This document shows, piece after piece, positions 31,831 through 64,000 of a DNA stretch of 64,000 bases. Position numbers and translations under genes: made by a program. The DNA is from Raillietiella orientalis (Eukaryota). The number at the start of each line of letters is the position of its first letter. Within the stretch, counting starts at the first letter, position 1. Where the stretch lies: contig JAYWIR010000010.1 of NCBI GenBank assembly GCA_036172245.1, positions 1,178,001 to 1,242,000 of the forward strand. Direction: 5' to 3'. Under the pieces are notes generated by a model. The model did not search any database, was not told where the DNA came from, and was given only the letters and a program-made list of their open reading frames with translations.

Positions 31831-33157
31831 AAGCTGATTGCGTGACCACATATTGATCTGTTTAACGCGCTGCCGAATCTCATGTGTTACGTAGCGATTT
31901 CAGTGGTGCGTCTCGGCATTCCTCTTATCCAAAACATGCACTGACTTTTGATGGGGGCTGATTGAGGTTACATTCTTCCAGCGGCAAAAATAAGGGGTCG
32001 CTCGCTGGTGGGGTTGGCAACTTGGGATTCCTTGCGAATGCTTCCGGTGCGCACCTGAAGGAGTTGGCTCTGCGGTTCGATGGTGCGTGTGAAATGCACG
32101 TGAAGAACGGGAGCAAGTGCGGGTAGTGGAACTCAAAGTTTGTGTACATATTTTGGTCGAATTGATTGTAAAATGTGGAAGTTTCTTAAGCGGGTTAACT
32201 ATAAAGTTTACGTTTTGACTACATTTGCATTCCCATCCTAATGATTGGATAGTATTATTGACTGATTAGAAGACACTACACTATCAGCATATATGCCAAC
32301 AAAACCATGTCTGCATGCTAAATTTTGCTTCATAGTACATTTAACGGTAATTCATAGACAGTGTCGCAGAATGCTATGTAAAGCCTCCATGACTCCACGG
32401 TAAAGTCTTTAACAGTTTTCAGTAAAATCAATTTTGAAGGCAAAGTAAAGAGATTTTCTGTATAAGAAAAAGAGATTTCTGATAAAACATTTTATGGAAA
32501 AAATCAGTGTCAGGCGTAGATTCTAATCCTGAAAGGCATTGTTCCAATAGAACTTAAGTAAAAAATGAAGTATGGAGGAAACAAGAGCATATTTTTCTTT
32601 GTACACCCTCTCTTTCCCTCAGCTCTCTGAATTGTGAACGTGCGGGAATTCCAAATCTTAATTGCCGAAACTGTCCAGTCATACTTGTTCTCTACATTGT
32701 TCTCTGTATATCAGTTTTTATTATCTTCATTATTTATTGTTCATAAGTTCATATTATTTTACAGGACTGCGTTATAGATTAGTAGCAAGTTAACTGTCAG
32801 TTGAGTGTTACATAAATGGGAAAGAATTTGGAGATTATGAGTCATTTTGTCTTTCATATTCAAAAAATTAGTTCACCTGCATTGTGGGAATACCGTGAAA
32901 GTGAAAATATTCAGAGCCACATGAAACTGATCAAATGTAATTTGTAAACTCATTCAATATGCAGTACAGTAAATTGGATTTTTGTGAATTCAGGATTTTA
33001 TTTTGATTATTAAGTATTTCGTATACTAATACAAAATTTTAAACAGAAATATAGTATTTGGTAGCATAAACGGTATTTGAGATATTGATTATTATATTTC
33101 AAATTTCAGTACTCTTTAACAATTATTCGATGAATACTTTAATGTAACCCACAGAAA

Positions 33158-34439
33158 ATGTTCACTCCTCATGAGAATCGTATTTGTTGCACAATTGCTT
33201 TATGTTTGCTGATTGCAGTTGTCAGTGGTGTGTCCCTTCTTTATCTCACAGTGTTTCTGTATATACCTTCTCACAAAACACTGTTGGGTGAATTTCAAGA
33301 TGAAGCTGTTATATGCAGAACAGTTAAGGCAGGAAAGGAGGTAAAAGAAAATACAAACTGGAGTACATGTAGTGAATGGTGTCTTTCTAAAACTGCAAGT
33401 AATTCTATGCAAGTATGGGTCTTTGTCCGAAAGAAAGGAGCTTCAGCAAAATTTTTCAATTGCACAAACTATAAGGAACAACAATGTACTCATTTAAGTC
33501 CATCTCACATAATGCCACTAAACTGTAGCCACCATCCTATGTGCAAAAATATTGATGGATTTTATAATTGCTCCCAGGAAGGTTACTGTCAGCATATTAC
33601 ACCATTTTTTGATTGCAAGGGAAGTACTAAGGGACTAGAACCTGTAAACTGTAACATTATTGAGCGTTGCAATAAGATAAAAGGGATGTTCTCATGCAGT
33701 AGAGGTTTATGTAGCAAATTGAACATGAACTGTGAACTGCGATGCAGTAGAATTGCACTTGCAAAACCATTTCTTAAAAATGTTGTGTTTTTCACTGGCA
33801 GTGGAATAGCAACAGCTACATGTGAAGATAGTGATAAAGTTGGCTTCACAAGAGCAGATATATTTTTGGGAAAATGTTCACATCTCAAGAACACATTACA
33901 TTCAACAGAATCCAAAAAATTTGATATGATAGGTGATGATTGTGTTGATGGTATGATATTGAATCACAACAAAATTTCTTCAGAAATAAGTTACACAAAA
34001 CTCCTTGAAACTTATGAAAATGTTCTAAGATCAGATGTGCGTAATCTCAATATTAGCATAACTGAATCTCGTGTGTTTCCATATGAATCTCATCTTCAGA
34101 TTATCAATAAAACTAGACTCCTTGTTAATGTGGAGGGGTGTGTCAATACTCTAAAAGATGAATGCAATACGATATACACAAATATAATTGGGAGAGACGG
34201 CAGTCATTTTGAAGCACCTGCAATTTATCCATGTTATATGAGCCCATTATATATAAATGATTTTGTTGTACTCAGATATAATAGGAAATTCACACTCTTT
34301 ACTACTGTATTAGCATCAGCAATTCCAAGTGGACTTCTTGCAGTTAGTTGTCTATGTTTGTTCCTGTGCTCCAGATTTGTAAAAGTGGAAGGAGCAAGAA
34401 TGAAATTGAGTTTTTTTTTGTTTTCGGAAAATGAGCAAG
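33158..34439 (+). CDS. TipE-homolog (Teh3/Teh4-type) voltage-gated sodium channel auxiliary subunit, main coding exon
   Basis: 429-aa ORF with an N-terminal TM (ICCTIALCLLIAVVSGVSLLYLTVFLYIPS), WSTCSEWCLSK, a long Cys-rich EGF-like extracellular loop, GCVNTLKDEC, GRDG..AIYPCY..DFVVLRY and a second TM (VLASAIPSGLLAVSCLCLFLCS). The ORF ends at a strong donor AAG|gtaagt (34440), so the true C-terminus is probably in a later exon. Teh3 versus Teh4 cannot be resolved by eye. Confidence 0.88.
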
Positions 34440-36152
34440 GTAAGTAAGTCCTACAGGAATTTCAGTGTTTCTGAAGTTCTTACTTTGTTTTAACTTATGT
34501 GATGGTTGTTCATGATGCAATAAGCACTAATCATTGAGCATACTGTCACAGAACTAGGAAAACCATTTGTAATATAAAATATCAACATCATGAACAGTAT
34601 CTGGGCTATTTATCCAAAGGTTCTTAATCTTTTTTAAATAAGTTATGGAAGTTTAGAAAATGACTGAAAAATTTGTTTTGGAAAAACAGTAAGAGGGAAT
34701 ATAATTTTTAGCAAATTCTAGGAAATTATGTGAAAATTTTTCAGCAATGACTCATCAATTAGTAGTTTTGTTCTTTTACATTACATGAAGTGTTATTAGT
34801 GTTAATTAATTTTAATTTTTGATTGTAGAATAATTTATTTCATGAGATTTTTATAAAGTAGTATGTAATTACACGATCAAATTTAATAATGAAAGTTATG
34901 ATTTTAGTCTTTATATTTCATTTTTCAATCAGTTTACGATTGATACTGTAATAATCCATGCAAGCTTATTGTTACAGAATGCTTCAAATTGTTTGATTAA
35001 GATAGTAAGTTATAGCATACAGATTTCTTAAGTACATTCACAAAAGAAAATGAAGTAATACACCTGAATTGGATGTTTTCAATGAAATATTTAGGCTGCT
35101 TATTTATTTATGAATTATTCAGTATATCCTTCAATTAATTTCTATTTAGAAAATTACTTTGAAAACAAGCTTAAGCTCCATCACTTTTAAATATTTGCAG
35201 CTATGATGGCCTCGGAATTTGTAAAAACAATAGCATGCTAGTGTATTATTATAATGGCACATAAACCATAGAAGAATATCAAGTGGTCCCATAATTTGCG
35301 AAAGTGTCTTCTCATATCAAAACAAATCATGAAGTGTTGCAAAGCATTCCCATGCTTGTGTATTCAAAGCATCCTTATGGTAGAGGATTCACATAATTGC
35401 ATGTAGCTTGAATTGATCTTATTTACTCAGGTGCACTGAGTTTTTTAAGAAAAAGCATTTACACAAATATTTAAAGGCTCCATGTTGAGAATAGTGATGT
35501 ATGTTTTTGAATTTTAGGTAGGGTTTGCAAAACTTTCACATATGGATATTAAGACCACATTGTCATTTGTAGTCTTTGTTTCTAAAGAATCAAATCGTGT
35601 ATATTTTGTGCCCTAATTTTGACAGAAATGTTGCGTAAGGTTGCATTTTTTAACCTGCTGTGGGGCATGTTTTTTTTATTAATTGAACTAAATAAGTAAT
35701 TGGAAATTATATAAGTATCAGCATGGAATTAAAGCAAGTTTGTAATTTGAGTAAATCATAGTATATTTTTGTCAATTTTAACTTTAAAAAACAATAAAAT
35801 TTCAGAAAATAACCTTTTAATTAATTAATCATAGACCTTATCTTGTAAGCCCTGTACTTGGATCATTTTTTGTTATCATAATATGCATTTGAAGTTAATT
35901 CATTTATAATTTACTCAAAGGAATGTGGGTTGCAAAGTTCACTGATGATCATGAGAATATGATGTTATTGCATTCAATGCTGCTTCTACCAGTTTTCATA
36001 TCTCAAAGGTCGTACCCATTTATCATTTCTTCATGTAAAAGGAAAGAAGCTGAAATTGTTGTTTTTAAAAAAGATCTCTTAGTACCTCTTCTATCCGGAT
36101 TTTTATTGTGACAATTTCAGTCATGACTATATATTATACAATGCTGTTTCAG

Positions 36153-43121: not shown

Positions 43122-46100
43122 TCATTTAAATACCAATATGTCTGCTTCCTTAGATTCATTTTGACGATTGGGATCTGGCATTCTAAAAAGCAATTAGCTT
43201 AAGTTTTTAAAAAGAAATGTTACCTGTGTATAACGACTAAACTACTGTCAAATTTTAAACTGAGAGCTGCCATGTCTTGTGGAGTTAAAAATATACATTG
43301 GTAATTTTTCTTCAAGTGACAGATTTCAAGTATCATTTCTAAACTAATTTTACGATTTATTAAGTCCTGAAAACAAATTCGTTCCTTTATTTAAAACACT
43401 AGAATAATCTAACCATAAAGACATCAAATTCATCCAAAATCCTGAAAGGCGAACAAGTTGCCTCCCATAATGAAAGAATGAAACAAACTGTGGAGAAGGA
43501 TCGTTCTCCACCAGATAAGGCTCTTGTATCTTTATTGATTCCTTTATTCCCACCACGAGGATCTACTTCAATAAAAATGCTTTGTGCAACATGATCAAAT
43601 TTGAGATGACCCTAGAATAGGTTAATTAAGACAACGAAATACAGAAGGCAACCTCCAACTTTGTAATGGCGCTGCTCAAGAGTTTTCTGAAACATCATTT
43701 GCACTTGGACAGCTATAAGAGTGCGCATTTTTTCAAACACCTGTTGGCGGTGTTCAATCATAGTACTCAATTTCTGTTGCAAACAAAAAAAAGAATCAAC
43801 AATTGCACTTTTAGTCAAGTTTTACCTTTTGCAATTGATCATTTTTCTGAATGAGCACCAACAAAGTTTCGTATCTACCTTTGATTTGATAATAATGCTG
43901 TGTCACCTCTTCCTTCGTACCATGGTGCTGGTTTTCTTGTTCAAGGCGCCTTTGAATGCTTCTTAACTCAGTTTCAATGCTATCAGGAGATCTGCAAGCA
44001 ATCACTATAAGATGTACAATTTAACTTAAGACAGAAAGTACATATTTGAGAAATATGGATTCACTTAAGCTTTCAGAATCTACTCATAATATCTTACCTA
44101 TCAGTTTTTACTTCTTCACAATACATTTCTGTTTTCTTTGTACGTTGCAGGGCATCATCAAACTCTTTTTGCTTCTGCTGAACTTCTTCCCCAATCAAAG
44201 ATTCATTCTGAGCACACTTGGTTATATTTTGAGCTAACACCTCTAAAGTTTTCATTGCTTTGTTTCTGTTGGATTCTGTTTCCATCAAGCACATCTATGA
44301 CAATAGATAGTATCTTTCTGCTATCTCAAATATAATGACCTTTAAATGTTCTACTTTTTCAGTCAAAATTGAGTTATGCTCTTGCTGTAGTTGTTCGTAT
44401 TTCTCCTTTATTTTATAGCAAGATCCACTCACACTATTCAACGCTTTTTGCAATTCTTTTTCTTGTTGCTTCTGCTCAGCAATGCGTGCTTCAACTTCGA
44501 CTAGTTCTTCTTCCTTAAAAAGAGTCCAGCAATTTTGATTTTCAATTAAAATACATTTCTTACCATTGATGTAATATCCACCAACCCTGGATCTACAAGA
44601 TTTCTAAGATCCAGTAATTCTGTGTTTATGCATCGTAATTCCTTCTGTACAGCCTTCACATCTGCCTGAATCTTACTTTCTTCCTGCTGCTTCATTTTAA
44701 GTTCCCGCTGTTCACATCGCAAAGCCTTTGCAGCTTCCTCCAACTGTTTTTCCAATTCTTTTCTCTCATCTTGTATTCTATTCACCTGATCTTGCACACT
44801 GACTTGAAGAAACTGTGCTTTCCTATGTGTGGAAGCATACGATCGATAATTGGGATCAGGAAAGTACACATCTCCTGACACTGTGTAGCCCTTCCGACAA
44901 TTAGCTGGAACTCTTTTCCAAAGCAATAGAAGCCATACATAATGTGATTACTCTTACTTATTTATATCGCTCATAATTTCACCTGCAATTCTACTATTGC
45001 CTAATAAAACTACATTTTCAATATTTACTTGGTCAATGAGCATATTAGCAACTACAGGATCATCTATTTCCAGCATATCAAGCATGGGTAAACAATGTTC
45101 ATTGCCTTGAACTTTATTTCTTTCAACATCATGCATTCTATGATGGAATCGACTACAGCATACATCAACTTTACTGGCTTGGTTTCCTGCACATTCTCGC
45201 AACATCTGTTGAAGAATTTTTGAATCATGAATGTTGTCAACACAGAATGAGTACATCAATCTTCCCAAAAACTGTTCTACAGCTAAACACCATTTGTTAT
45301 CCTTTACATGAACATGATGTCCTTAAAACAGCAAATGCTATATGCAATTAGATTAATGATTTCAACTCACCTACTGGACCACGAGGTCGTTGCATAAACT
45401 TCCCTGCTTTAACACCCTGTTCAATTCTTTGTAGAAATTTGGGCATCCAAGAAGCATATATGCTTAATTTAGAGCCTTGCTGCTGTTGTAAGCTAGCTAA
45501 AAGACGAGAACCCTGATCAATCTGACTAGAGATTTTGTTGTTTTCTGCTTGCAAATTATGAATCTCTTCACGTAAATGATTCTTTGCATCATTTATACTA
45601 TTAATTTTTTGCTGACAAGTTTTCAAAGTATCCTGGCATTTAGTTTCTTGGGCAGAAAGCAGATCAATTCGATGCAAACGAGAATCACGCTGTTTAACAC
45701 TTTCCTGAAGTCTAATCCCAATGTTGTCTTTTACATGACACACAATAGAAACATACTGTTGTTGAAGCTGTTTAATTTTTTGCTGATAATGTAGACGATC
45801 TTCTTCTAAAGAAGAAACTTTTCTCTGGGCTCCATTTAATTCCATGTTTACTTTTTTCAGCTCATGCCTATGGCAGAGCAGACTGTCTCGTGTTAATCTA
45901 ATAACTGATAACAATCCTTCTGCTTTCTCAGCATATACTTTTAATTCTTTTTCCAATTCTCTAAATTGAAAAACATGCAGCACACTGAAGCATTTCTGCT
46001 TGACCATAATTGTTAGCTGTATTTGAAACTTACATACACACACACATATATTACAAATCTGATTTTACAATTAATGGTGCAACCAATTACTTTCTCAACC

Positions 46101-48200
46101 AAAAAAACGTCATTTGAATGCATTTTGAAATTACAACAAAATGCATTGTTGCACAAAATGCATTTTTGCAACATTGGTTAATGTTCATCACTCATCCAAT
46201 TGGAAAACTACTTAAGAAATGACTGCATTTTCCAGCTATCATATTCAACCACAAACATCCAATTAAATTTAAAAGTAAGAATTACTTCATAGATGCTTAA
46301 AGAAAAGAAAACCACAGATTTTTAGATATTTGATTTGTTTTTCACAACCACAACATGCACAAAATCAAATACCACAAGGCTACAACCTTTACAGAAGACT
46401 CCTGTGGATACCAAAAAATGATACACTCGTAAATGAAAGAAAAGACAAGGACAAAAAAGAAAAATGAAAAAGCAATGCTTGTGCAAAAGCTTATACAAGT
46501 CCACAGTGAGACATATTTATACCAATTAAAAACACTGACAAACTGATTGGTTGTTTCAAAATGCATCATAACATTTCTTGCATAGGCTTTCTCACTTTTT
46601 TATTTATAAAATATAACACTCAAAAACTATTTATACTGAAAACTTGATTTATGATAATCAGTCACATAAGCTCATAGGAAAGACTAAGAATAAATCATCA
46701 TTCCAATTATGAAATAATGAACACCTCTACATTGTAAAACAGAACCTAAGAGCAGCAGAATTATTTTTAACCATTCCTGCTGTTTTCAAAATTAAAGACA
46801 TGTTAAAGGTTTGAGCAACTTATCATAACTCCTAAAAGATGTAAGAAAACAAAAAACTTTCATGATGCCAAAAACATAAGAAACCACAAATACATAGCAA
46901 AGCAATAACTTAATATGAATCTCCGACCTTAGTTTGTTTGTATTTGAGGCAAACTAGTAAAATTACCCTTTCTGTTTTTCAGCAGCACTAAGTTTCTGAT
47001 TTTCCTCACATACTTTGTTTCTTAAGGAAGAGGCATTGCTTTCTGTTTTAGCTAACCTCTTTTTAGCATCCTCTAATTCCAACCACAACAGATTAATCTA
47101 AAGAATGAGCTTGTAACATAAAATTAAATATTTCTTCTCACCTGAGACCAAACCATCTCTTTTTTGAGATAATCCATTTTGGATCTAAGCTCATCTAGAG
47201 ATTGATGAAAACGCCATTTTTCTTCACACCTCTTTACTTCTTTTTTGAGATCACGTAATAGCTGAAATAATTTAGTTCCTAATAATATTTTTAGAGCTTA
47301 TTTACACTTTTTTTTTCTTTCAAAATTCGTTCAATTGCCATTTTTTCTTCAGCTATTCGAGTGTATTCATTTTTAATTCGATCCATCATAGTGGCTTTCA
47401 TGAAAAATTTATATTTACTGTGAGAATCTTTTGAATGCAAGAAATTTCGGGAAAGATCTTGATTCAGGATGGTAACAGGATTATCGACTTGAATATTCAT
47501 ATACTCCAGTAATCGAGATAGGTCTTCTTTTTTAATGTGTAATGCTCTACCTATATGATTTTAGATATGGCTTATAAAATAAAGAGATACAACTATTGCA
47601 GTCCATAATTTTATACGACGCTGTTCCATCTAGTTTCAAAGAACGTATAATTGTGATGCTAGACCCATAGATCTCTGGATGATAAGCATCTGAACCACAA
47701 TTACTTATTGTGATGCTAATATGGGCTTGTGTTTTACCCTTTTTAATAAGATCTAATTGTTTTGTTATAAAAACTATAAAGTTATAAACCAATTACCTTT
47801 AAAATTGGAGCCTCGGTTAGTAGTTAAAGCCTTTGCTCCTAAGCCTATCATAATTCCTGTGAGGATTGCACTTTTTCCACTACCATTTTTACCAACAATG
47901 AAATTCACTCTTGAACTGAAGTTTACTTCCAAACATGAGTGACACATGAAATTTTGCAGGCACACTCTTTCTAATGTACCAGAGCATCCCTTTCCTTCCT
48001 ATTAAAAATAATTTGCTTTTAGCACAAGGCCATCAATGACTGTTGCCGAACAGATTCGGAAATAAATTAATGCCTACCTCATCAAACGAACTTCTGTTCA
48101 AGTGATCCTGGGCATCTCCAGGAGATACATCACATTTCAACTTCTTAGAATGCGATTCCTGATAAGACGGTTTTCTCTTCTGAGACCTTTTCGAAGACAT
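43122..48200 (-). CDS. SMC6: Structural maintenance of chromosomes protein 6, 17 exons, ~1097 aa
   Basis: Manual splice, all GT-AG and phase-consistent: 48200-48078, 47998-47797, 47752-47591 (or 47594), 47550-47306, 47261-47142, 47097-46967, 45960-45757, 45711-45371, 45321-44958, 44912-44564, 44513-44340, 44294-44098, 43991-43826, 43773-43660, 43611-43414, 43366-43224, 43182-43122. Motifs: LQNFMCH, Walker [27 protein letters not shown] (Q-loop), coiled coils, hinge [29 protein letters not shown] (Walker B, SMC6-type), IFLTPQDM. Confidence 0.96.
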
Positions 48201-48566: not shown

Positions 48567-51196
48567 AATTCTTAATAGAGAGTACCAAGCATTCGCAAAA
48601 TATAAATTCATCCCACTAGCATTCACTCAGTGCTGCATTGAATTAAAGTATGCTCATTTTTATTTTAACAAACTCGTTATTTGGATGTAATAATTATTTA
48701 ACTGTATTTTAATAAATTTCAAAAGAGTTTGTGTTTAAAGGATTTGTAAAAATATGAGCTCGTATAAAAATTACCGGTGATGAATTAAGATTGGCATTTA
48801 TCTGGCTAATCTTTAGTTGTGAATATTCGTCTTCATATTTTATCTCTATTCTTTAAGTCTTTAAGTTTATCCCATTTTTTTGGATGGACATATTTACTTT
48901 TAAAAAACTTTGGAAAACTTCATGCATCTTCTACGTAATATCTGTGCTCTTTACAAAAATATCAATTTCAGATTTTTGACAGCTCTTTTAACAGGTGTAA
49001 CCGTTATTGAATTTTTCTATGAAGCTGGGAGACGTAAATCTAGGAACTGGAATATCTATCCATTGGATTTATATGCTGACAACTGCAAGAGATTGGACGT
49101 ATGTGTATTACCGTTGCTTGAAAATCTTTTCGTAACATATGAATCCGATTCATTTTGTCCCCTCTACTAAGTGCCTGTATAGTTTATGATCTTTTGATTA
49201 ATTAGAAGCCCTTAATAACTAGATTGATTGCCCCTGTGTTCAACACATTTTTCAGCTTAATATTGTTTATGATGATCGAGAATAGCTCAGGTGTTTTCAT
49301 TGTAATACATACTTAACATGACAGATTTTATAGAAAGCATGATAGAAACGTCTGTAGGTTTGTAGCAAGGGCAAATAGCTTAAATTTTCAAAACCTTTTG
49401 ACTTTGAATACCTTAAGAAATGTTAAGTTCCAACCATAAGAAAATGATTTCCTTTGGAAATGGGGAAATATATTTTATATGTGTAAATTGTATCCTTCTG
49501 GAATCATATTGAAATGCAAAGCATAGGAGAATTAGGTTAAGAGAGCTCGTAATTTGTAAGGACTGCTAGCTTTGCACTTAAAAAACATAGAAGGCAAAAT
49601 CACATATCAAGCTTACAAATAAAAAGCATTATTTTGCTTGATGTATCAATTGCATAATTCGAAAATTAACTAAGTGCTATGCAAAGAGCAAATCATTCCT
49701 GAAAATAAAAGTGCATTAATATGAAAGCGTTCTGCAATTTGTCTAGATGTAAAATAGTTTGTTACTAATCACGTATTATGAAATAAAGGCAAAGGGAAAA
49801 TCGTAACCTATTCCAAAATTCTGAAACGATTCTTGAGTGTTGGAATTTAGCAGAAATTCGAAAAAACACCAAGCGATCCCAATCATAAGGCATTTTTTCT
49901 GTCTTGTGGATGGAGAGCTGTGTCATAATTCATGCAAAGTACTTCAAAAGATCACATAAAGGTTTATTCTGGCATCACCCTACATCGACTTTCTGCATCA
50001 TGCACTCGAGTTTTTAGAAAACGAATATGGTTTACATACGTTTACCGAACTCTTCAACTGAGATCGTGATTTAGATGGGATCTTCACGTTTCATATTTAG
50101 AAACGGAGTTTTACTTGTTTGCAATTCACTTCTGAAATTTATGTAAGCTGATTAGGAATCCTGAACTTGTCAACAGGTACTAGATAATGCAGCTAAAGAG
50201 AGTGAAAATTTTAGCTTTTACTGTAAATTGCAAAACTGACAATACCAGTTCATTGGAATCAGGGACAATGAATTTATGATTAACTCACAATTATCGATTA
50301 GTAATTTCTTTTCATGAGTCTTACAGCCTTTCTAAACACCAGTACTCAATTGTCGTGAATTTGCCCTCCCCCCCCCCCCCCAAGTATTTGGAAAAAAGTC
50401 AAAATTTCAAATTTCTCTATCACTTCCAAATCACCCATAGTGGATGAACTTTTAGCTGCTTTGTGCAAGTTTATGCAAGGAAAAAAAAAAAAAAAAACAG
50501 GAACCTGTATTTATCAAAAACATTTAGCAAATCAGCATTTATTGTTTCATTTTTTCTGAAATGCCAGCATCTTCCAAAACCTTCCATTATATCTTATGAG
50601 TCTTGGAAAATTAAAACGCACACTGAGGACATCATAAGCACGTTTCTGTGAAGGATTGCAAAATTGAATCGAAAACAACAGATCTCATTTGCAAAAGAGG
50701 CTGCTGCTGTTTCTTAAAGTTTATCGTAATCTTCATCTGCCTAATTAGGACTGAAACTGCGATTACCCGGTGTCAGCTTCTAAAAGAGCTCTTTCAGCAG
50801 TAGTAAAGTTCTTTAATAAGTCCTCAAAGTAACGCAGGTATAATTTGATACGATTTCTACGAAGGGAGCTTCGAAAACGTACTTTCATGGGTTTCCCTTG
50901 AGTAGTCTTATTCAATTTGTGATGTTTAATGAAGTTCGATTCTCCATAGGGCCAACATTTTCAGCGGAGAAATGAAACTTACAGGAAATTCGTTTGCAGA
51001 CCGAACGCCTCCCAGGAAAGAAGCTGATGGAGGGTGAGAATATCGGAAGTGAGAACATCCTGAGGAAGACGCAGACACACACGCCAAAGCGGAGGTTTTA
51101 CCTTTACCTGGAGTGATGGCCGAGGACCAAGGAGTCGGTGATCCTGGACTTGCAGTGGCTATTGAAGCGATCCGACGGAGACGAATCAGAATAACG

Positions 51197-51219: not shown

Positions 51220-51801
51220 AAAGCAGAAGAGAAAAAAACATGGTAATGGCTGAATTCAATCCAATCCAAGGAGGAGAAAAAAGAGAGGAGATTTGCAGAA
51301 ATTCGAATTTTCCCGTATGGAATCTGAACTTTTCATCTTCGAAAACAACTGAAAGCAAGAAGGAAAATGAAGCTGAAAAATGAAGCTTAACAGTCAGGAT
51401 GAGTACGGTTAGGTACTTTCTTCTTTTTTTCCAGTTTTCCTATCGATATTTTGATACTTGCTGAACGATCATAATTCTGAATAACTATTGCTATAGATGA
51501 CACCGATTGATCGTGAGGCGTTCATACTAAAAGGTTTAACTTTGGTTAACTGTAGCAAGTATTAGAGCAATTGAGATATATATTTACCGTTCAGGGGGAT
51601 TTCAACCCTTCTATGCAGCAGCTGAACCCATGGTTTGGCTCATGAGAAGACGTGAGAGATAGTCAACCGAGTATCTCTACGACATGCAGTCCCAGTGGCG
51701 TGGAGGTGTCTGGGGCCTATTTTCCGGCTTCCATAGGACCCTCTCCGAGCGCGTTCCGGGGTGACGATGGGCCGAACCCTGGGATGGGTGTTGGATGGAT
51801 G

Positions 51802-51978
51802 GATTTCTTCAGGAATATCGCTGAATAGCTCCTCCATTTCTGTCGCAGATTTGAAGTGGTGTTCAGTGGTGAGCTTCTTTCTGTTATTTTCCAGAGCACA
51901 ACTCCCCTCTGATATACACGTTAATATAGCGTAAGCTTCATGGTCAGACCTATTTGGAAAAAACACATCGTTCATTGC
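51802..51978 (-). pseudogene. dnaE: Bacterial DNA polymerase III alpha subunit fragment (PHP domain), Wolbachia/Rickettsiales-like nuclear insertion
   Basis: [59 protein letters not shown] matches DnaE ATNDVxF..DxEAxDxLxCI..G......R.....HYFKSxxEMxxLFxDIPEAI. Internal fragment only. Confidence 0.88.
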
Positions 51979-51982
51979 ATCC

Positions 51983-52192
51983 ACTAATGAGGTGCTGATG
52001 TGTCAGGAAATGTTGCAATCCATAGGCTTGCGTCACTTTAATCCTCAAGTGAATTCATGTCCTGGATGTGGACGTGCAAGTAGCGGCCGTTTTTCTGAAA
52101 TAAATAGTTATATAAAAGCTAATATGCCTGTGTGGAAGGAAGAAAATCCAGGTGTATAGCGGATGAATGTTGCTGTCATGGGGTGCATAGTG
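51983..52192 (+). pseudogene. ispG: Bacterial HMBPP synthase (IspG/GcpE) C-terminal fragment, Wolbachia/Rickettsiales-like nuclear insertion
   Basis: My translation: [69 protein letters not shown]. It contains the IspG 4Fe-4S motifs SCPGCGR and VAVMGCIV, with an in-frame TAG at 52157-52159. Absent from the ORF track. Confidence 0.92.
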
Positions 52193-52899
52193 ACTAGTGC
52201 ATGCAGAAGCGTGCAGGGGTCACCAAGACGCATGTGGTTCTGTTCTGTTCTGCAGTCCAGTTGATGGGACGTCAGGTGCTCGCAGCTCACCGGCCGCTTG
52301 GTGCAGACGCCCCCTCCGTCGTGCCGTTCTCTTCGCCGCGCACCTTTGGTGGAAAGGAAGCAAAGCCCAGTGGGCTGTTCTGACAGTCGTTACTGCCAAG
52401 ACGCGAAACGAAGGCGCCGCAAGGCGGGAAGCACGGGCTTCACGAATACTCGCTTTACGCGGGCTCTGGGTTCGGGACGTGAAGCGGGGAAGGAGACCCC
52501 AAGGACAGGAGAGAACTGTCGAAAGTGGAGACAACAAGCAGGAGAGGAAGCCTCGGCCTCCCTCAGCGGAGAGAACTGACAACACGAAGCAGGACTTTCC
52601 AGACTGCGGGAAGAGGGAAAGGGAATCCGAGAGCCAACCGAAACTGCCGAGACAAAAGACATGGCTGCGAGAGTGTCTCTGTTTTTCCGATGACACGTTC
52701 CCCAGGAGGAGGGAGGCTTCCCAGTGCGAGACGTCGCAAGGAAGCTGCAAGCGGGTTAGGAGGATAAAGAAGTGGATAAAAAACAAACAGATCGGGGGAG
52801 ACAGAAGGGACATCCGTTGGTTGCAGTGCGTCTTCCGTAGTCTGCCCAAGATCCTGGAGACGTGATCCTTCAATTTCCTAACCAGGATGAGCACCTGGA

Positions 52900-53720
52900 A
52901 AAGAAGGAGGGATGAACACGTCGCTACCCTTTTTGGGGTGGAGGAGTTGCGCAGACGGCTTCCTGAGGTTGCTGGCTCAACTTCAGAGAGCCCACACTAT
53001 GCCGCGGACGCTGCACAGAGCTGCGGCCCGGGCGGCAAGGGGAAGATTGGTTGCTGTGAGTGTAGAAGAGTCGCAGAAATTTCCTAGGGAATGTCCTCCG
53101 GATGTAGCAGGACTGCGGCTCTGTACAGTAAGGGCACACTCGACGTTTCTCCGCATTGTATTGCTCCAGGAAAAAAAAAGACTTTTCCAAATATTCCAAG
53201 AAGCGGATAACGGGCCAATCCGTGGAGGAAGAAGGCATTCGTGGAATCCGGTCGGAGGCAACCGGCAATTTATCAGACTTTCACCTCTGCTAAAGTTTGG
53301 TATTTCGTTAGCTCAGACGGAAACCACTTCAGGCCGAATGGCTTTCCCAGAATATTTGCACGCCTCTCAGATGTCCAGCACCAGCAGTTCAGGTTCACCA
53401 ATCTTCGTGGTAGCTTCCTTCATTCGTCTCAATGGCCTCTGTACAGGGAACAAAGATGCGCCTTTGCTAAGATTTGCTGAGAGCCTGGCTACGGGGCACG
53501 AGTCGTAAAACACTTGTTTGCACCAGGCCGTTCCGGGACGTTTGTTCTGGAATTTGTTCATTTGGAAATTGCCACAGAAAAGGGCGAGAAAAACCCATTC
53601 CTCCATGGTGAGAATGCAATGCCCACCACATCGGCACGAGTCCAGGAGACGCTTCTGCTTGCAAGACGACTGCCCATAGAGATCAGCGCAGGGAAATTTG
53701 GGAAGGGGGTAAAAAAAATT
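52900..53720 (+). mobile_element. Decayed gypsy-type integrase remnant
   Basis: HVATLFGVEE...GCCECRR (HHCC-like), YFVSSDGNHFRPNGF..F...DVQH (~IVSDNGxxFxSxxF..F...GIxH), RLNGL (~QSNGL). Confidence 0.4.
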
Positions 53721-53751
53721 GACGCAAAAGAAGCAGTTTTTTAAGCTCCGA

Positions 53752-54301
53752 GGGAAGGGAACCAAAATCTAGGATCGCAGTTTATATATTTATTTCACAA
53801 AAACTTATTAAATATAAAAATATATATTAGTATATATAATAAGCGTATATATCTATCTTTATGATCTTTATTATATAATAGCAATATAATAGTACATATT
53901 ATTAATTGTATTATAGCAATGCAATCACTAATATGGATGGCATAGTCCACATGGTACACATTGTATAACTGTAATACAATTAATACACCATGAGTATTAA
54001 CATTAATTGTATTAATTACATTTACTAATATATGCTTAGTATATATCAAAATATGTATGATTAATTGTATCAATAATATGTCTGTTAATGAATATTAATT
54101 GTATGCATGTTTAAATAATATTGATATTCATAGTATGTATGTTATTAAAAATTCATAAGTACGTACGTTAAAATAAATTTGTATATTGATCTATGCATAT
54201 ATGAGCATATATCTTTATTTTTTATACTCTTTATCATATATGTTAACCTACGTATAAACACATGTATATGATCTTTCAAGCTCTCGAGATTTGCTATTTC
54301 G
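53752..54301. mobile_element. AT-rich foldback/MITE-like family, copy E
   Basis: Reverse complement of 54170-54230 (taaaaaataaagatatatgctcatatatgcatagatcaatatacaaatttattt) matches the family arm; the right end tgatctttc..gagat..tttcg resembles the right end of copy B. Confidence 0.6.
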
Positions 54302-55439
54302 ATGGGCACCGATTCCTTCTCCCGCTTTCCCATCTGTGCAGCCGGAACACTTCGATGTCTACCTGGTGTCCGCTGACGAGCGAATCCTGAGAAACACGGG
54401 TGACCCCCTCTGTCGCGCCAATCTCTGTTAGGGCACGTGGGACGGCCGGCGTCTCCCGGTCCGCAAGGAACCCGCGCTCTCCTTCTGACAGACGTGTGAG
54501 CCACCATCCCGACCTGGGGGGAAATGGGCTCCGAAGTCTTCTGCGGAACCACTCTTGTCACCGAACCTTCCAGATGCTGGGAGGGGCTGCTCTTACGAGG
54601 AGTTTCTTCCTGCCACGTGCGAAGGATGGGACCCTAAGCAACCCGGACTCCTGTCCTCAAGCCCCAGCACCGCCTTCTTGTTTGCTTCCACATGGAGACG
54701 GAGTGCTCCCGCATCCGCCTTCGCTTCACGAATTTCCGCTTTTGAACCTTCAGCACGAGCAAGGTGGTGAGTTCCTTTATCCGCGCTCCGATTCGCTTCT
54801 GAAAATCATCATCCCTATGGTGGCTCACCAAGCACTCACTCATGCTCATGTTTCTTGCCATGCTGTTGCAGGATTGATCTCTTAGAGCATGGTTATGGGC
54901 GCTTCTTTGGTGGAACGCGGTCATAACCGGAAAGCAGCGGAAGACGGAATGGAGGTCGGCGGGGGTTTCTGCTTGGAAGCGGCTGTATACTGAAAGGACT
55001 GACTCGGGCCATGCTGCCACAGCCCACGTTCCGTGGATCCGTCGACAGACGAGACGTGCCTGTGGTGCAGAAACCATCGCTTCGTGCTGACTCTGGACGC
55101 TTGGAAACCTCCAAGAAACCCACGACGGCTCTGATCGAGCAGGCCGTGAGATTTCCTTGCAACTTGCGTGAACCTGCCACACTCCCGATTCTCATCTCCG
55201 TCGTATCAAAGGAGGCTTTGTTAGTGGACAAGGTGTGGGCCGAGCAGGAAATGCGGAGCCCCTTAGAAGATGTGGAATCCGTTCGACCCTTAAGAAGCAT
55301 CTGCGAGGTGTGCATTTCAGGAATTCCTACCGAAAACCTTCACGAGTTCCAATCCCAGGTCTTTGCTGTTTCTTTCCTTGAATGCCTTATTTCCGGCCAT
55401 GGGGACAGAGAAGTGAGAGTCCCGCTGGGAAGTTGCGTA

Positions 55440-57600
55440 TCATGTATTCGGTGACCCCAGAGAGCACAAAAAGCTCTGCAATGTCCATCGGAAGGCGTTT
55501 TCACGATGGCAAGCCAATGTCAAAGAAACAGCTTCGGATCTTTGGGAAGTGCCCCTTGCCTGAAGGTTAGCAGCTTCGCTTTTTCAAAAAACAGCGTTAG
55601 CATGGACAAAGCCAAAGTCTTCCTAATTTTACCCACTGATATATGCTATCTTGGTGGCTCGGACTGTAGCCACACATTGCTTGATCTGTTTATTTACATT
55701 GCATACCAGAGCACCAGCCCTGTATGTAGTTGGTACCTCTCTGACCTCCGCGTTCATCTTTCAAAGACAGTTCGGTTACCTCTCCTTCTCTAATGTCTTC
55801 AACATGAGCCGCGCACAAGATCTGGGAGTTTGGAGCTCGGCTTCCTTGATGAAGGAGTTGAAACTTCCTGGCAATGGATTCAAGCAGGCGCAGCAGCAAC
55901 TCACTGAGTCCGCAGCTATATTCTTCTACCTCAGGAACACGCCAGGAAGGGCCTTGAAATGGAGGAGGAATTGCAGGGCAGCATTGCAAGAACAAATCAA
56001 TGAAACCCAAAACGCTTGATGGACGGTCCAGAGAGTTATAAGAGGAAAGCTCTCATCAGGGGCATAAGTTTCGACTCGACACCCTCGAAGGTACCCAAGT
56101 GGACGTCGTGACTCACCACGATGGGCCTCAAGTTGTCCATGAGCATCAAATTTTTGCGTCTTTCCCATAGGAACATCTGAAGAAAAGTTCTAGGTATAGG
56201 AGGAAGCTGCCTATCCATGCAATGCCTCCCAGTATAAAGATGATTTTGATAGAAGCTGTGGATAACGACAGCATGAGTTGTGCTGATTTCTTGAAATCAC
56301 ATATGAAGCTCAAAATAAAGTCTTTTAAGGACACATCTGATTGAATACATCAGTGGCGTCAAAGAAGACTCGGTGTGTGTGCTCTACATGAAGCACTCCG
56401 TCCTGCTGCCATCTTTCAACTCGATCATCACACATGGACCGCTGTCGCCGCTACCATCAGTTCGTTTGGAAATCCTTGCCATCTGGAGTACACATGAAAA
56501 TGCTGGTTGACAACCAAGATGCCTCAAACTCGTATTTTTAGTTGTTCTTCAACTTTGTGAGAGTCAGATGCTGCTCTAACAACCCAGTCAGCAGAGATAA
56601 CGGATGTTCTTTGAGGGTTGCTATGAACTTATTGATAGCACCGCTACCATGATGAAAACTTTAAGGTGCAATAGCGCACTTTTGCATTACCAAGATGAGA
56701 AGTAGGAAATCCACAGGGTACCCCTAAAATGGCTCGCTATCTCCATTCTGGAACTGCGAGTTCGACTGAAACGTTCCGAGCTCTTCGTTTTTTTTTTCCT
56801 TCTGCGGGGAACATTCGCAAGACAGATACACGTAGATAAGGTAAACAGCGCTCCTGTTTACAGCAGCGAGAACTCATGGATGCTTTTCCGCATCACAGTC
56901 CAAGTGAGCTCTGCCACTTTGACAGTAAAAGGTTGTCATGAACGATCCAGGAGAATGTAATGCATTGCTTGCGGAAGATTATGGATCGTGATCACAGAAA
57001 TGACGATTTTTGATGACGTTGCCCCGAAATATGCAATGCCGCATGCAGACAAATTGAGAGGAATATCAGTTCACTGTTTCAGTAAGTAATGAAGGAGCCA
57101 TTCCAGCATTATAAGAGTCATTTTTATGATGACTTCTCCATTGCAAAAGGAAATTTTAAAATTCCTTCCTTCCCAGTGAGTAAAGGTATCGAGGCAGAAT
57201 GCTGCAAAAGCAGAACTTGCGAACTGTCAGGGATCGCGTGAAAGAATCGATGATAACACGTCGAAGAGTGGGATGCAACTAGGAAGGATCTCGGTCCTGC
57301 GGTGGTGCTATTTCGCTTTTCGAACTCTCTGGCAGAATTCTACTAAAAGGATCTGAAGTCCATCTGCAACCACTCCGTCCAAGTGCTTGCAGCCGGAATT
57401 TCCTAACTGATGGCGTTTCGTGTCACTTTGTGCAGGAATCGGTTCCCATATGGTGCTCGTGCACGGAGAATGACCATTTGCCTGTGATTCCACGTTTTGT
57501 TTTCGCTTCTAACACGATGACATCCCAAAACACTTGTCGTACATCCAGCTAGGGCCATGGCAGCGTAACAATTTGACCTAAGGGAAGCCATGCCGATATT
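55440..57600 (-). mobile_element. Decayed LINE (CR1/L2-like) ORF2
   Basis: Minus, in order: PLSLL (~RPISLL), NQHF (~NQHGF), DFKKS..GGIAWIGSFL (~DFxKAFD..WIxSFL), FLWERR, YAPDE (~YADD), YSPSHQDSI (~WSP....I), KLLTFRQ (~LxTLxxRR), FF...*KRLPMDI (~WNxLP). Confidence 0.55.
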
Positions 57601-59399
57601 AGTACAGTCGGTAACTTGCCTGTCGAACTGGGTGCATCGATGAGAGGGTGCATCCTGTAGATTTTTTCCCTACTTTTAGAGCGTGGCGAGTTCTCTGGAT
57701 AGACCAGTCTCAGGCATCAGAGAGATCTAAAATGGCGCGCGCGACTTCTTTTGCATTCCGTTTACTACTTGTAGTTTTGCTTGGAAAATCACAGGAAACT
57801 GCATAACGGGGGGGGGGGGTTGGGAGTCATGGAAACATGGCATGCAAAGAAGGAAAACTTTGAGCGCAAGGCGCAGTACAGCTTGCAGGCAGGGGCACCC
57901 TCAATGAGGAACTGGCGTTATTCTAGAGAACGCGTCATCGCAAGGTCGCTTAATTACTGCACGACATCCTTCTTTATCGTCAAGTCACGTTCCAAAAGCC
58001 ATCTACTCGTATCCGTGTTTTTGAGCAAGCGTTCTTTGTGCTCTTAAAGAGTCCAAATGCATGCGTCTGTTCTGGTTAAGATCACAGAACTCGGAATCCC
58101 CGCTATGCTCAACTGATATGGCTTTGAAAAAAAGCTGCAGAAACTCGACAAGAATCTCTGCTGAAAGGGAAAGAAAGGAGTCGCTCGCGTTTCCTGTAAA
58201 AAAAAAAATAAATAAATAATTCTGCAAGGAGTCGTTCCTGTCTGTCCGCGAATCTGCACCACATCTGGAGTCTCAGCCGCCATCGAACGGCTGATCAACA
58301 CAGCCTTCGAATGCTTCAGGATCTTCAGGATTGCAGATAGCGGATCCGCCGGTCCAGAACGTGTTTCCGACAAGGCGAGTTTCAGTTAATTGAGTTTCAA
58401 TCCGCCTCCTCTCCTTAGAGAGCACGGATTGCAGATGCAGAAAATGAACAGCAACAGCCACACCTTCGTTTCGACCATCACGAAACGGAACTTCGACGCG
58501 AGCCACAGGATGCACAGCTCCCAGGAAAGCGCCGTGGCTCAAACTGCGTGGGGATTCTGAGTGGCAACCGGACATTCGAATGGCAACGTGTGTTACTGCG
58601 TTCGAACTTTGCCCCTTCCCCCCAATTCCCGATATTTCACTCAGGGAAACCCGCAACGTTCGATTTTCGATGGGGTAAGGAATTTGCGAGGTCGATCTGG
58701 GTTCGTTCCTTCAGACAGTGGTTCCGCGGGTTTAACGATGTCGTCTTATTTTTCCCTATTTTCTGAACATCGAGGATTTCCTGGACCTCACGCGCACACC
58801 GCCCCCACAACGTGAAGCTCCATGAATGGTCACATTTTGCGCACCCCTTTTGGCAGAATAGGATAGAATGACAGGATACAGCAAGCTACCCAGCATCGAG
58901 TCGATCCGGACGTTACCTCCGGGACTCGTGTCTTGCCTTGCCAGAAATCATGGGGAAACGGATGATCATCTTTGCGCACTCTGCGCTTCAATGATTCTCA
59001 GGGGGCTTCATTAGAGATCAAGAGTGAAGTCACGGCTCAGCACGGTTGCAAGGCGCATGAAACAGGAAGCTATGAAGTTCTTGAACACCGTGGGAGAACA
59101 CGGTGGAAGATATCTAACGAGGCATTCAAAACATCTTCCCGGATGATCCCATCGATGAGGTTCTATTGACAGGCCTTAACGCAGGAGGAACTCAGGAAAC
59201 CTCTTCTACAAAGCAAAATGGCAGCACCTCTCTTCTTGGAAATGAAAAAAAAAAAAAAAAAAACGGCGCTTCCGATAGAGGCACGAGTCCACTATCTTTC
59301 GAAATATTCGGCTCGTCGCTTTCGGATTCCAGTCCGCGCCGGAGGTCACGTGGTCACGTTCTCCGCTGGTGGCACCACCAAGCGTCTCGGGTTCGAATA

Positions 59400-59732
59400 C
59401 TCGGAAAGAAATCGACTCCGAGAGATGGGAGGTGCGTCGTGGGTTCGAGTTCCTCCCGCGAGATGACGCCGGTCGGCCTGCATTCATTCGGGTGCGGCAC
59501 CGGTGGCTGTTCAAACCGGATGCCCCCGATGAGTGGCCGGGATTGAGAGTCGACCTCCGGGTTCATCTAGGAAGCAGAATCAAGGAGCGGGTAGTTCCCC
59601 TGCGGTTGTTCAAAGGAGCGGCGGACCGCTCTTCTCCCGGGGGACGTTCCGCGTCGTATCATGGAGCTGGTGTGGTACCTCTCCAGAGAGTGCAGAGAAG
59701 CGCGCAGCTCCCTTCGGGAAGCGCCCTTCTGA
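59400..59732. repeat. Copy of the GC-rich repeat family; 59497-59732 is a near-identical inverted copy of 63765-64000
   Basis: 236-nt ungapped alignment with 9 mismatches by my count. The ORF track shows near-identical peptides 59533..59841(+) and 63689..63964(-). Confidence 0.92.
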
Positions 59733-59949
59733 CGGCCGCCAGCTGCCAGCTGGAGGCCGTGTCGGAGGAGCGTCGGATCGTGGGAGGTGGATGCCAAGCG
59801 CTCACTGCGTTGAGGAGTGTTCTCTCTTCCTCCTCCGCTGATTCGAGCCGAAACTCGAGAGAGCTGCCATTCCCCGGTGGGCCGGCGGAGCACGCGGACG
59901 ACCCCTTCGGGCTTAGAAGGATGCTGGAAATTATGCGGGCGGTGCTGCT

Positions 59950-60350
59950 CGCGAGGCTGCCCTAATGGGTTTCCCTTGGGCCTGACTACCTCTGCCCTCT
60001 GCCTCTACCCAACCGATTCTCTCCTAGAGACCCGAGTTGCGCGGGGGGGGGGGTAGATGCACACCTTGAACTCTCCTTTCTGCGAGGGCGCAGCGTTCCA
60101 TCCATCACCTCCTCTCATCCGCTGCGCAGCTCCCACGATACGTGTCGACGCAGGTTTGGAGCGGATGTCCTCCAGCTGCCTGAAAGATGAAACGAGTGGA
60201 GTCTGGTGCGGTGGTAAGGGATCTTGCGACTTCCCTGTGTGATAGAGGGGGCGGAGGTGCAGCATCTTCGTCGTGAGGGCAGTCCCCTTTCCCCCTTCCC
60301 CATCCCTTTCCACGTATGGCTAGCTTCCATGAGGGAAACAAGGTATTTCT
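59950..60350 (+). mobile_element. DIRS-like YR C-terminal remnant
   Basis: VVRDLATSLCDRG (~HEVRAxATSLAxxR) at ~60210-60250. Confidence 0.3.
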
Positions 60351-61949
60351 CAGGCCGGAGCTGGTCGCCTGGCCCTGCAGAGGACTCCTACACACCTCCA
60401 CTCTTTCACCTGGTGGCAGTACGACAGCATGTAGCCCCCGGCTACATAGACGCACGGCTCAGTCTCGGAAGGGTTCGTTCTGCAAGTGGCAGGGTCCACT
60501 ACGCGGTGCTACTCTTTGCCCCGCGGGAACACGGTGGACGGCAGGAGACGGTTCCTGATTCCGTCTCTGGGTTACTTGGCTCCCGTCGTTTCGCCGCCCA
60601 AGGCGCCTCCTCCACGGGAGGCATCATTGTGAAGGCTGGCAAGGCTTTTCAACTTCTGGCCGGCCGGCCCCCGCTGCAGATGCGCGGATAGTTCGACGAG
60701 CCTGGGACCGTGATGGTTGGCCTATGCAGACTTCCCGAGAGAAAGGGAAAGCACGTCCACACGCTACTGAGGACTGATGAGACGCTTGTCCTGGAGTCTT
60801 CTTGGCTTTTCTCTGATGCTACTGACAATCACCCACCTTTGCTAGAGGACTTCGCCATTTGTTATCAGTGCTGACCTTGAGAAAGGGAGAAGAAAAAAAA
60901 AGAGCAGAGAGAGAGAGAGAGAGCGGGTGGGTGGGTGGGTGGGGTGGATTGTAGCGTAGAATTATCATCTGTTCTTGAACAACTTCTGAAGCTTTTTATT
61001 TCTGAGTTCCTGAGCACGTTGGTGGGTCCCTTGCCCTGTGAAGTTACCAATTCGAAGGCAAAGTTGTGCAGGTGGAGGCGTGAGGTCCGCTCCCCCTCCT
61101 TCCTTTCCTCACATGCATCGCAGAATTCGTCCTTCCAGCTTCCTAGCAAGCTCTCGAGCTCTGTGGCACATCGTAGGAGTCCATGGGGCAATTAGTCGAC
61201 AGGGGGTCGCCCGTGACAAAGGGCGGAGAGTGAATCCTCCACAGCACCACGCTCGCTGCGAGAGGCGCCGGGCCTGAGCTCTCTTGAGTCCTCCGTCGGT
61301 GAAGTGGCGATCGCTGGTCGTGTTCCCTGGCACATGGTCTGTGTGATCGACCTGCTCCGCTGGAGCCGCTGGTGCACCTATGCTTCCCAAGGTGCACCAG
61401 CGGCGGCCCGGAAGCAAGTCGCTCTTGGACCTTTTGCTTTAGGAGGCAAACCGCCCAGAAATACGCACCAGAGGGTGCAAGTCCTTCTCAGCACCCGATC
61501 CTCGAGAGTCGCCCAAGGCCACAGTTGTCTGTTGAACCGCAGCTAGGTGAGGAAGGCCCGTTACCAACAGTTCTTCTCATCTCTCCCTTTGTCTCTCAAC
61601 GGCTTTCTGTTGGCTTTGAAGGTGCGGTCTTTGCGCGCAGCCGGGACCCACGCCAAAAACCAGGTGCTTCCCGGCTAGAACGCTCCGCATTTCTTTGCCC
61701 CTTGCACCTCACGGCCTCGACTCTCAGCTCCGATAGGGATTCCTCGTCCAGCAGGCGGGTCCAGAGTGCGTCTTCGGAAAGTACTTTCGGTCTCCTGGAA
61801 CCCCTCAAGGCTTTCCGAAGAAGGTCATGAGTCTTTCGATTCCCCTTGTAGTACGCGAACAAAAAGTGGGCGTCAGACGAGAAGGTGCAACAAGCGCTTC
61901 ACGCTGTAGTGCGCTCTCAGACTTCCCTCTCAGAGCCAGATCGCCTCTG

Positions 61950-63470
61950 CGCTTCCCGTGGTCTCCCGCCCGTCGTCCTTGGCTTCACCGTCGCACCCTT
62001 GAAAGTACTCCTCAATGCTATTTCCCTTGACTACTTTAGCAAGTCGCTTGGGCCAGACACTGAGTTCTAATTGGGATCAGAGACCAAGGGTATCGTGTTC
62101 TTCTTCTCCTCAAGGATCACTGGTGCCGTTTCGCTTCTCACACTTTTGGACGAGTCCCGATGTTATGCCTCCAGGACAAGCTTGCAGATCATTAATCAGA
62201 CCACCCTCCAGCCATGGTGAGAAGCAGACAGGAGTCAAGGAGGTCGATGCTCTCTTCTCGCGAATGGGGATTGATGAGGCAAAGGACGTCCGTCGCCGGC
62301 TAGAGAAAGGAAAGAAGAAATTTTGTGTTCCTCAGCGAGGATACTATCTCGTCCGCGCAAGTGGCCTTGCTTCTCCCCAATTGGTCTAAGGAGATGATCT
62401 TCAACTGGAAGCGAAGGCAGGGCTGCCGATACTTGCTGATCCGGTCCGACGTTTCCATCGAGAAGAAACAACCTTGGTCGACGAGACCGAAGCTTGCACT
62501 CCGTCAGCTCATCTCGAAGTCTCCTGTCAGGCGTGGCGGCGGACCGTCGTCTACGGAGCTTCTCTGAGTCCGCCGGCACTTTGATTAACGTTCAAGTAGC
62601 CTGCTGAGATGATGGCACCGTCGAGGACGGGATTTCCGATCTTGCACTTTCGCAAGGAGATGCACGTGACCGCGTTTGTTGGCGCGTGGTTCGTACCCTT
62701 CTCCAAGGAAAAAAGTGGACGCTTCCGGACCGCGACATGCACACACGCGGGCAGACCTTCCGGGGATAGTAGATGCAATCTCGTTCCTTATGAGTACATC
62801 AACACGTCCTTCCTGAGTCTCGTACAGCTGTAGGCGAAGAGCTGAGATCCCAAGGAGTGATCTGGCTCCACAGAGACATTTCGGAACGATTCACAAGTCT
62901 CCTGTTTACACCCTGTCATCTTGGGACGTTTGTTCTAGTTCAGTTTGTTTACGCATTGAAAGTCAAAAAATAAAAAATAAAAAAAAGGTCATTCAAACTC
63001 TGTGCCCTTCCGAGGAATGGACTGCAACCTCTTTTATAGTTCAGTGAAGCTACCATCACCTCGAAGGGCTACGGGTACACCCCAAGGTCAGTAAATTGCA
63101 TCCTGTATATTTTTCTCCTCTACAAACCGTCCGATGGTGTAGAATTCAACGCAGCAATGGCGACCAACAAACCTTCTCAACAGGCTCGATTTTCCTAGCG
63201 TACATTTTCCAGTGTGCTTTCCACCTTCGTCGATAAAAAATGGAGTCACTCACTCATGGGCAAGTAACATTCCGTTCTGCAAGGCCCTGGACAACCTCCT
63301 TCAGAATCCCCAAATTTCTTCTCGCGTGTGAGATTCTCGATTGGACCAAAAGGATGAATATCCTACAAGCCCGGGTCCGACCCGAGGAGAGAGTAGGTGC
63401 TCTGCAACCTGCCGGTCGTTCTTTTGCCACAGTGGGCGAGCGTGCGTGTTCTTGTATGCGTTGAAGCAAG
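61950..63470 (+). mobile_element. Decayed DIRS-like RT/RNase H
   Basis: RLGQTLSSNW (~GRLxxFxxxW), GSLVPF (~GYxIPF), KEVDALFSRMGIDE (~EVxxLLxKGAIE), GYYLV, GLPILAD (~GxRPILD), YIN (~HINxLEL), EILDWTKRMNILQARVRP (~ILxWxxxxxIxLxAxHIPG). Confidence 0.6.
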
Positions 63471-63529
63471 GCAAGGAGGTCCTGAGCTTGTCTCTCCGAT
63501 TCCAACCTTTCCAGTCCGAAAAGGTAGGG

Positions 63530-64000
63530 GGTACCCTGGGAGGGGACCGTGCTACGATTCCAGAAAGGGCTACGGAGAAAAGAGTCCGTTCCTCTCACGC
63601 CTGGGGAAGGGATCCCGAAGGGAGGTCACCTCCACCCTGGTTGCCTCCGAAGAGAATTCCGAAGGAAACCTCCTTCCTTATTCTCTCCTTAAGAACCCTC
63701 CGAAGGGGACTGCACCCTGTCTTCTCCTCTGAAGAGAACCCCGAAGGGACGCTTTCGAAATGTCTCAGAAGGACGCTCCCTGAAGAGAGCTGCGCGCTTC
63801 TCTGCACTCTCTGGAGAGGTACCACACCAGCTCCATGGTACGACACGGAACGTCCCCCGGGAGAAGAGCGGTCCGCCGCTCCTTTGAACAACCGCAGGGG
63901 AACTACCTGCTCCTTGATTCTGCTTTCTAGAAGAACCCGGAGGTCGACTCTCAATCCCGGCCACTCATCGGGGGCATCCGGTTTGAACAGCCACCGGTGC
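63530..64000. repeat. Inverted copy of the GC-rich repeat family, running off the window end
   Basis: Reverse complement matches 59497-59732 almost exactly and 14030-14330 more loosely. Confidence 0.9.

Follow-up and report, generated by a model that had tools for sequence, protein, structure and literature searches.

The question raised by this locus is how pieces of two bacterial genes, dnaE and ispG, came to lie back to back in DNA assembled from a eukaryote. The window, meaning the whole stretch of DNA that was analysed, is 64,000 nucleotides long, and the bacterial pieces form a small patch within it. We consider it very probable that the patch is an old, non-functional nuclear Wolbachia transfer (nuwt) in the assembled host chromosome. 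In the assembled window the patch is continuous with GC-rich, non-bacterial flanks, and SMC6 and a TipE-family frame are found on the same stretch. The patch descends from within the genus Wolbachia and, given its disabling mutations, is not part of a living bacterial genome, both of which are features expected of a nuwt.

Structure and identity of the two pieces

The patch is approximately 395 bp long and consists of two internal gene pieces arranged head to head, the 5' ends of both facing each other (Table 1). The limits of identity were determined by ungapped extension, which placed the dnaE piece from 51799 to 51979 and the ispG piece from 51983 to 52192/52193. The initial annotation had described a 4-nt gap between the pieces, which nucleotide alignment corrected to 3 nt (TCC, 51980-51982). 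Translation of 51802-51978 on the minus strand contains EELFSDIPEEIH, and 51983-52192 on the plus strand reads as an IspG peptide. A single in-frame TAG is present in the ispG piece at 52157-52159 (GAG to TAG). The DnaE peptide on the minus strand and the IspG peptide with one in-frame stop on the plus strand, as originally described, were thus both reproduced. The GC content of the patch was 41-42%, compared with 38-40% in the Wolbachia orthologues and 57-60% in the flanks.

Small repeats were observed at both outer boundaries. The left boundary is straddled by (GGAT)3 at 51793-51804, and the right boundary (52183-52202) has two copies each of GTGCAT and TAGTG in a span of 20 nt. These may be traces of microhomology or slippage left by the integration, or they may be due to chance.

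Table 1. Coordinates of the patch, its flanks and the nearest host exon in the window.
Feature	Coordinates	Strand	Basis or remark
Host SMC6 N-terminal (Walker A head) exon	47777..47998	-	Pfam AAA_23 E 5.6e-13, SMC_N E 3.8e-9
Left host flank, GC 56.8%	51600..51798		without bacterial similarity; unrepeated elsewhere in the window
Internal Wolbachia dnaE piece (DNA polymerase III alpha, about codons 200-260 of about 1120)	51799..51979	-	blastn, NF004226
Filler TCC, 3 nt	51980..51982		matches neither donor locus (ungapped extension loses identity)
Internal Wolbachia ispG/gcpE piece (about codons 290-363 of 434; includes CPGCGR and MGCIV)	51983..52192	+	blastn, PF04551
Right host flank, GC 60.0%	52194..52600		without bacterial similarity, without protein domain

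The dnaE piece matched NCBIfam NF004226 (E = 5.5e-12) at profile positions 203-263 of 1146. It scored 44.4 bits against a cut-off of 1002 and so does not qualify as a full-length DnaE. No Pfam family was matched by this piece at E ≤ 1, and the PHP-domain label given to it in the initial annotation was therefore not reproduced; we take that label to follow solely from the location of the piece within the DnaE profile. The ispG piece matched Pfam PF04551 (IspG/GcpE, E = 3.9e-13) with 49.6 bits, above the cut-off of 32, as well as NCBIfam NF001540 (E = 6.6e-16) at positions 250-312 of 364, with 58 bits against a cut-off of 345. Since it covers only part of the profile and carries an in-frame stop and a 4-codon deletion, it is not an intact IspG/GcpE (HMBPP synthase) frame. 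Judged by their sequence, both pieces are internal gene fragments and neither is an intact gene.

Wolbachia ancestry of the patch

The best dnaE locus was found in the complete genome (1,389,053 bp) of the Wolbachia endosymbiont of Cantharis cryptica, referred to here as G001. When the whole window was searched against G001 with blastn, the dnaE piece matched 736163-736343 (89.5% over 181 nt, ungapped, E = 2.3e-62) and the ispG piece (51983-52191) matched 848545-848325 in reverse (81.4% over 221 columns, E = 9.1e-55). Matches to the dnaE piece were obtained in 58 of 60 genomes of the genus at 73-90% nucleotide identity, and matches to the ispG piece in 55 of the 60 at 67-81%. At the amino acid level, identity of the dnaE piece was at most 69% in 38 family genomes outside the genus, versus up to 85% inside it.

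Broader searches gave the same picture of a Wolbachia-like donor that had been proposed from the letters of the patch: the best matches were DnaE and IspG of Wolbachia, and the patch was nested inside the genus on a rooted tree. The dnaE piece matched 76 loci in genome_contigs, of which 13 had 70-87% amino acid identity and the next best had 56%; ten of these 13 were titled Wolbachia and three were 'Rickettsiales bacterium' MAGs. When the ispG peptide was compared with longer proteins, 35 of 40 candidates matched at E ≤ 0.001, the best at 73-75% amino acid identity. Among the 21 ispG matches that carried an organism name, 19 were Wolbachia, one was a 'Rickettsiales' MAG and one was a Paucibacter MAG at 55%. 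For ispG alone, a second Wolbachia genome (G018) was nearly as close as G001 (83.8% versus 84.8% nucleotide identity), whereas its dnaE reached only 76%. The donor may have belonged to a recombinant lineage or to one that is missing from the sample.

No further credible Wolbachia DNA was found in the 64-kb window by blastn and six-frame tblastn (1988 frames) against G001. NCBIfam searches of 85 frames at 49.5-54.6 kb gave matches only in the two patch-bearing frames. Because there was no other match in the window and NCBIfam matched only on patch frames, the bacterial material is confined to the ~395 bp. A 43-nt AT-rich blastn match at 49358-49400 (E = 0.001) was taken as chance, as were 5 weak tblastn hits outside the patch (E = 3e-4 to 9e-3), with approximately 20 expected at the threshold.

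For phylogenetic placement, the two pieces were concatenated in a codon alignment of 402 columns and 38 rows, comprising 32 genomes of the genus, 5 outgroups from the family and the window. Rows were taken only from genomes whose loci had been fetched, out of 60 in the genus and 38 elsewhere in the family. Comparisons of private states and deletions used 32 Wolbachia per fragment, and an earlier concatenated tree had held 22 Wolbachia rows and the window. In the concatenated tree the patch was sister to G001 (ultrafast bootstrap 93, SH-aLRT 77), and the pair was placed within a clade of 29 rows (96/91). The patch fell outside a clade of 21 rows (99/91) containing the Laodelphax (planthopper) and Psylliodes (flea-beetle) symbionts, and outside a clade of 6 rows (97/92) containing the Paracimex and Cruorifilaria (filarial) strains. 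When the 32 genus genomes were made to group without the patch, the best such tree was rejected by the AU test (lnL difference 12.6, p = 0.027). This p value is modest, and the sister placement with G001 (93/77) is only moderately supported. The end branch of the patch was 0.15, about seven times longer than the 0.02 of G001, and the median was 0.02. Trees built from a single fragment did not resolve the placement, each fragment being too short. The symbiont of Cantharis cryptica would be the closest sampled relative of the donor lineage. A supergroup label for this symbiont was not found in the literature, and its name is absent from PMC9894559.

The two genes are not neighbours in Wolbachia. 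In 41 genomes that carried both on one contig, the median separation was 433 kb, the smallest 8,139 bp (G018) and the largest 1.18 Mb, and they were adjacent in none. They were 8-28 kb apart in four genomes (G018, G023, G026 and G049), and in G001 they lie 112 kb apart on the same strand. Therefore the juxtaposition seen in the window does not come from any sampled Wolbachia chromosome. The junction in the patch is artificial because the genes were non-neighbours in 41/41 genomes and both pieces are internal, which bears out the initial claim that the pieces cannot be natural neighbours.

Decay of the two pieces

The ispG piece has a private 12-nt deletion near 52094-52097, where the missing bases were present in 32/32 aligned Wolbachia, and it carries 12 nucleotide states seen in none of the 32. 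The frame of the dnaE piece is open, and 8 of its nucleotide states were seen in 0/32 Wolbachia. By codon position (1/2/3) the private states were distributed 9/7/4, and the variable columns among the Wolbachia themselves 42/31/111. One of the changes in the dnaE piece, ACG to ATG (T to M) at 51973-51975, falls in a column that is invariant in the 32 Wolbachia, and it is the M in place of T within ATND to which attention had been drawn at the outset. Among the columns invariant in Wolbachia, 7/104 had changed in the dnaE piece and 8/110 in the ispG piece, for a total of 15/214 or approximately 7%. Because the two pieces are equally decayed (7/104 versus 8/110), they would have arrived at the same time.

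Differences between the patch and G001 were assigned to branches by parsimony against 27 other genomes. On the patch branch 40 substitutions were placed, 15/8/17 over codon positions 1/2/3; 13 were synonymous and 27 non-synonymous. The corresponding pS was 0.158 and pN was 0.084, giving a pN/pS of 0.53 as compared to 0.05-0.15 for living strains. The G001 branch received 11 substitutions with a ratio of 0.15, and comparisons between living strains in pairs gave 0.05-0.11. Substitutions on the patch branch therefore look relaxed. A pN/pS of 0.53, being below 1, is consistent with a branch that evolved partly in a bacterium and partly under neutrality, although this division into two phases is a model. 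Under that model, a bacterial phase at a ratio near 0.1 would have been followed by a neutral phase of approximately 0.07-0.08 substitutions per site, and the modelled neutral phase agrees with the ~7% change at invariant sites. Insect-like mutation rates are a few times 1e-9 per site per generation. A neutral divergence of ~7-8% since insertion would then correspond to millions to tens of millions of generations, the estimate at these rates being of the order of ten to a few tens of millions. The description of the patch as an old, decaying insertion is upheld by the stop, the 12-nt deletion, the raised pN/pS and the change of 15/214 invariant columns.

Origin of the insertion and its host surroundings

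The N-terminal exon of SMC6 is 3.8 kb away from the patch, with the patch on its 5' side. In structure matches this exon resembled SMC6 chains (E = 5e-20) versus SMC5 (E = 6.4e-7), and the position of the patch upstream of SMC6 in the initial annotation is thereby confirmed. A TE block had also been proposed to the right of the patch, where no transposon domain was found in the tested frames and the DNA was just GC-rich and domain-free. Transposon domains were found in none of 92 frames 120 aa or longer from the whole window, in none of 145 frames at 52.8-64 kb and in none of 48 minus-strand frames at 40-48.4 kb. There was no NCBIfam match in the flank frames, and Rfam and tRNA scans of the window each gave 0 matches.

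In the mechanism that we propose, Wolbachia resident in the germ line of an ancestor of the arthropod host would have supplied DNA that was captured into a chromosome. End joining would have sealed loose fragments of bacterial DNA into a double-strand break, much as in organelle insertions of the mosaic type. We lean towards end joining at insertion, as opposed to later rearrangement of a larger insert, as the origin of the junction. Co-insertion is favoured because no other Wolbachia debris was found in 64 kb. We infer that the patch is without function today and is a fossil of a past infection, silent on any present one.

It is quite possible, if not our preferred reading, that the transfer is real and the junction secondary, a larger insert having been whittled down by deletions and an inversion. 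The equal decay of the two pieces (7/104 and 8/110) is as compatible with this history as with co-insertion, Wolbachia inserts of very large size are described in PMC4299567, and the two loci are merely 8-28 kb apart in some strains. However, more debris would usually be expected from a whittled insert than the 64 kb contain, there being no other Wolbachia remnant, and starting from the arrangement in G001, whose two genes share a strand, an inversion plus a deletion would be needed. Taken by itself, a single decayed copy fits ligation at insertion and subsequent deletion or inversion within a larger insert alike.

It is unlikely that the patch sits inside a host repeat or transposon as one of many genomic copies. 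The patch does lie within GC-rich, gene-free DNA, and repeated Wolbachia-like fragments in a nematode genome are described in PMC4046930, but the 3.3 kb around the patch had no second copy in the window and no tested frame contained a transposon domain. The 26-nt junction also had 0 matches in metagenome_contigs, a weak point given that this collection does not consist of host genomes.

An assembly chimera or contamination, in which bacterial reads, from a live Wolbachia or some other species, were mistakenly built into a host contig, is highly improbable, because a living symbiont would not carry the ispG stop, the 12-nt deletion and the 15 changes in invariant columns, among them those in the dnaE replicase gene; moreover, the bacterial part is only ~395 bp from two non-adjacent loci and has host-type DNA of 57-60% GC on both sides within one 64-kb stretch. 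No more credible is the idea that the host has co-opted the patch, whether as a regulatory element lying upstream of SMC6 or as novel coding sequence: the patch is indeed 3.8 kb 5' of that gene, and the ATG created by the T-to-M change at 51973-51975 opens a 110-codon frame (51640-51975, minus strand; the open frame spans 51640-52002) that runs into the GC-rich flank, but the substitutions are spread over codon positions (15/8/17) with a raised pN/pS, the ispG half is broken, the frame extends into GC-rich DNA in which long frames arise by chance on both strands, and no homologues or domains were found past the dnaE piece.

The nuclear transfer reading can be compared with known systems, each taken as far as the cited source describes it. 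For Dictyocaulus viviparus, PMC4046930 describes short stretches of disabled Wolbachia sequence that co-assembled with host DNA and interprets them as what remains of a lost symbiosis, and in filarial nematodes nuwts have served to reconstruct past infections (bioRxiv 10.1101/2025.03.17.643741). As in those accounts, the patch comprises short Wolbachia gene fragments in host DNA with stops and indels, and identity to living Wolbachia falls at roughly 80-90%, with 84.5% in the D. viviparus account (PMC4046930) versus 89.5% and 81% here. Unlike the nematode nuwts as reported there, the host here is probably an arthropod, the 64 kb contain a single patch of ~395 bp, and among living strains the nearest relative comes from a beetle and is not a filarial or clade F strain. 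The insertion on chromosome 4 of Drosophila ananassae, in the description of PMC4299567, is likewise Wolbachia DNA within an arthropod chromosome. Inserts of that type are given in the same source as large, recent, multi-copy and near-identical to the living symbiont, with long colinear stretches, whereas the patch is tiny, ~7% decayed at constrained sites and non-colinear.

Mosaic organelle insertions of several fragments (NUMT/NUPT) are attributed in PMC6215612 to end joining. The patch resembles the complex NUMT/NUPT of that account (PMC6215612) in that non-adjacent fragments of endosymbiont type are joined at one nuclear site with a short junction filler. It differs from them, so far as they are characterised there, in that its donor was a facultative bacterial symbiont and that end joining is here only a presumed step.

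The patch is an ordinary case of a well-known kind of transfer, and it adds one case but no new principle. Transfers of Wolbachia DNA to hosts are common. The patch shows that an ancestor of the host carried Wolbachia, whatever the present infection status, and for annotators and contamination screens it is a caution against taking these 395 bases of host DNA for a symbiont contig. Tentatively, and with more doubt than confidence, the patch might also be regarded as a palaeosymbiosis marker from a Wolbachia lineage outside the 21-row and 6-row clades; the insertion would have become fixed millions of generations back, in an arthropod lineage of which few members have been sampled. If that reading were true, the patch would count among the few clean cases of a mosaic bacterial insertion formed by end joining, and if the patch proved orthologous across related hosts, a minimum age could be dated for the infection of that lineage by Wolbachia.

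Several other features of the window were observed. A gene-bearing block with a GC content of 30-40% extends over 28-51.5 kb, to the left of the patch. It includes a multi-exon SMC6 gene at 43402-47998 on the minus strand, in which the hinge (44957-45322) and the C-terminal head (43402-43611) were matched weakly; its 238-codon coiled-coil exon gave 0 matches to longer proteins at E ≤ 0.001. The TipE-family frame (sodium-channel auxiliary subunit) has 434 codons at 33143-34447 on the plus strand and matched PF16972 at E = 6.3e-5, below the cut-off. It had 9 homologues at 25-33% identity, the best named of which was from the amphipod Trinorchestia longiramus (31%). This frame is the chief indication of an arthropod host, possibly a crustacean, an assignment with weak support. 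The regions 1-28000 and 52000-64000 have a GC content of 45-60% and many long open frames on both strands, with no Pfam domain in the frames tested. An inverted repeat pair at 63765-64000 and 59497-59732 (96% over 236 nt) reaches the end of the window. Diverged repeat copies with 73-78% identity are located at 19838-20545 and 10112-10390, and beside the former is an AT-rich kilobase (20001-21000, GC 24.5%) within a region of otherwise 50-60% GC.
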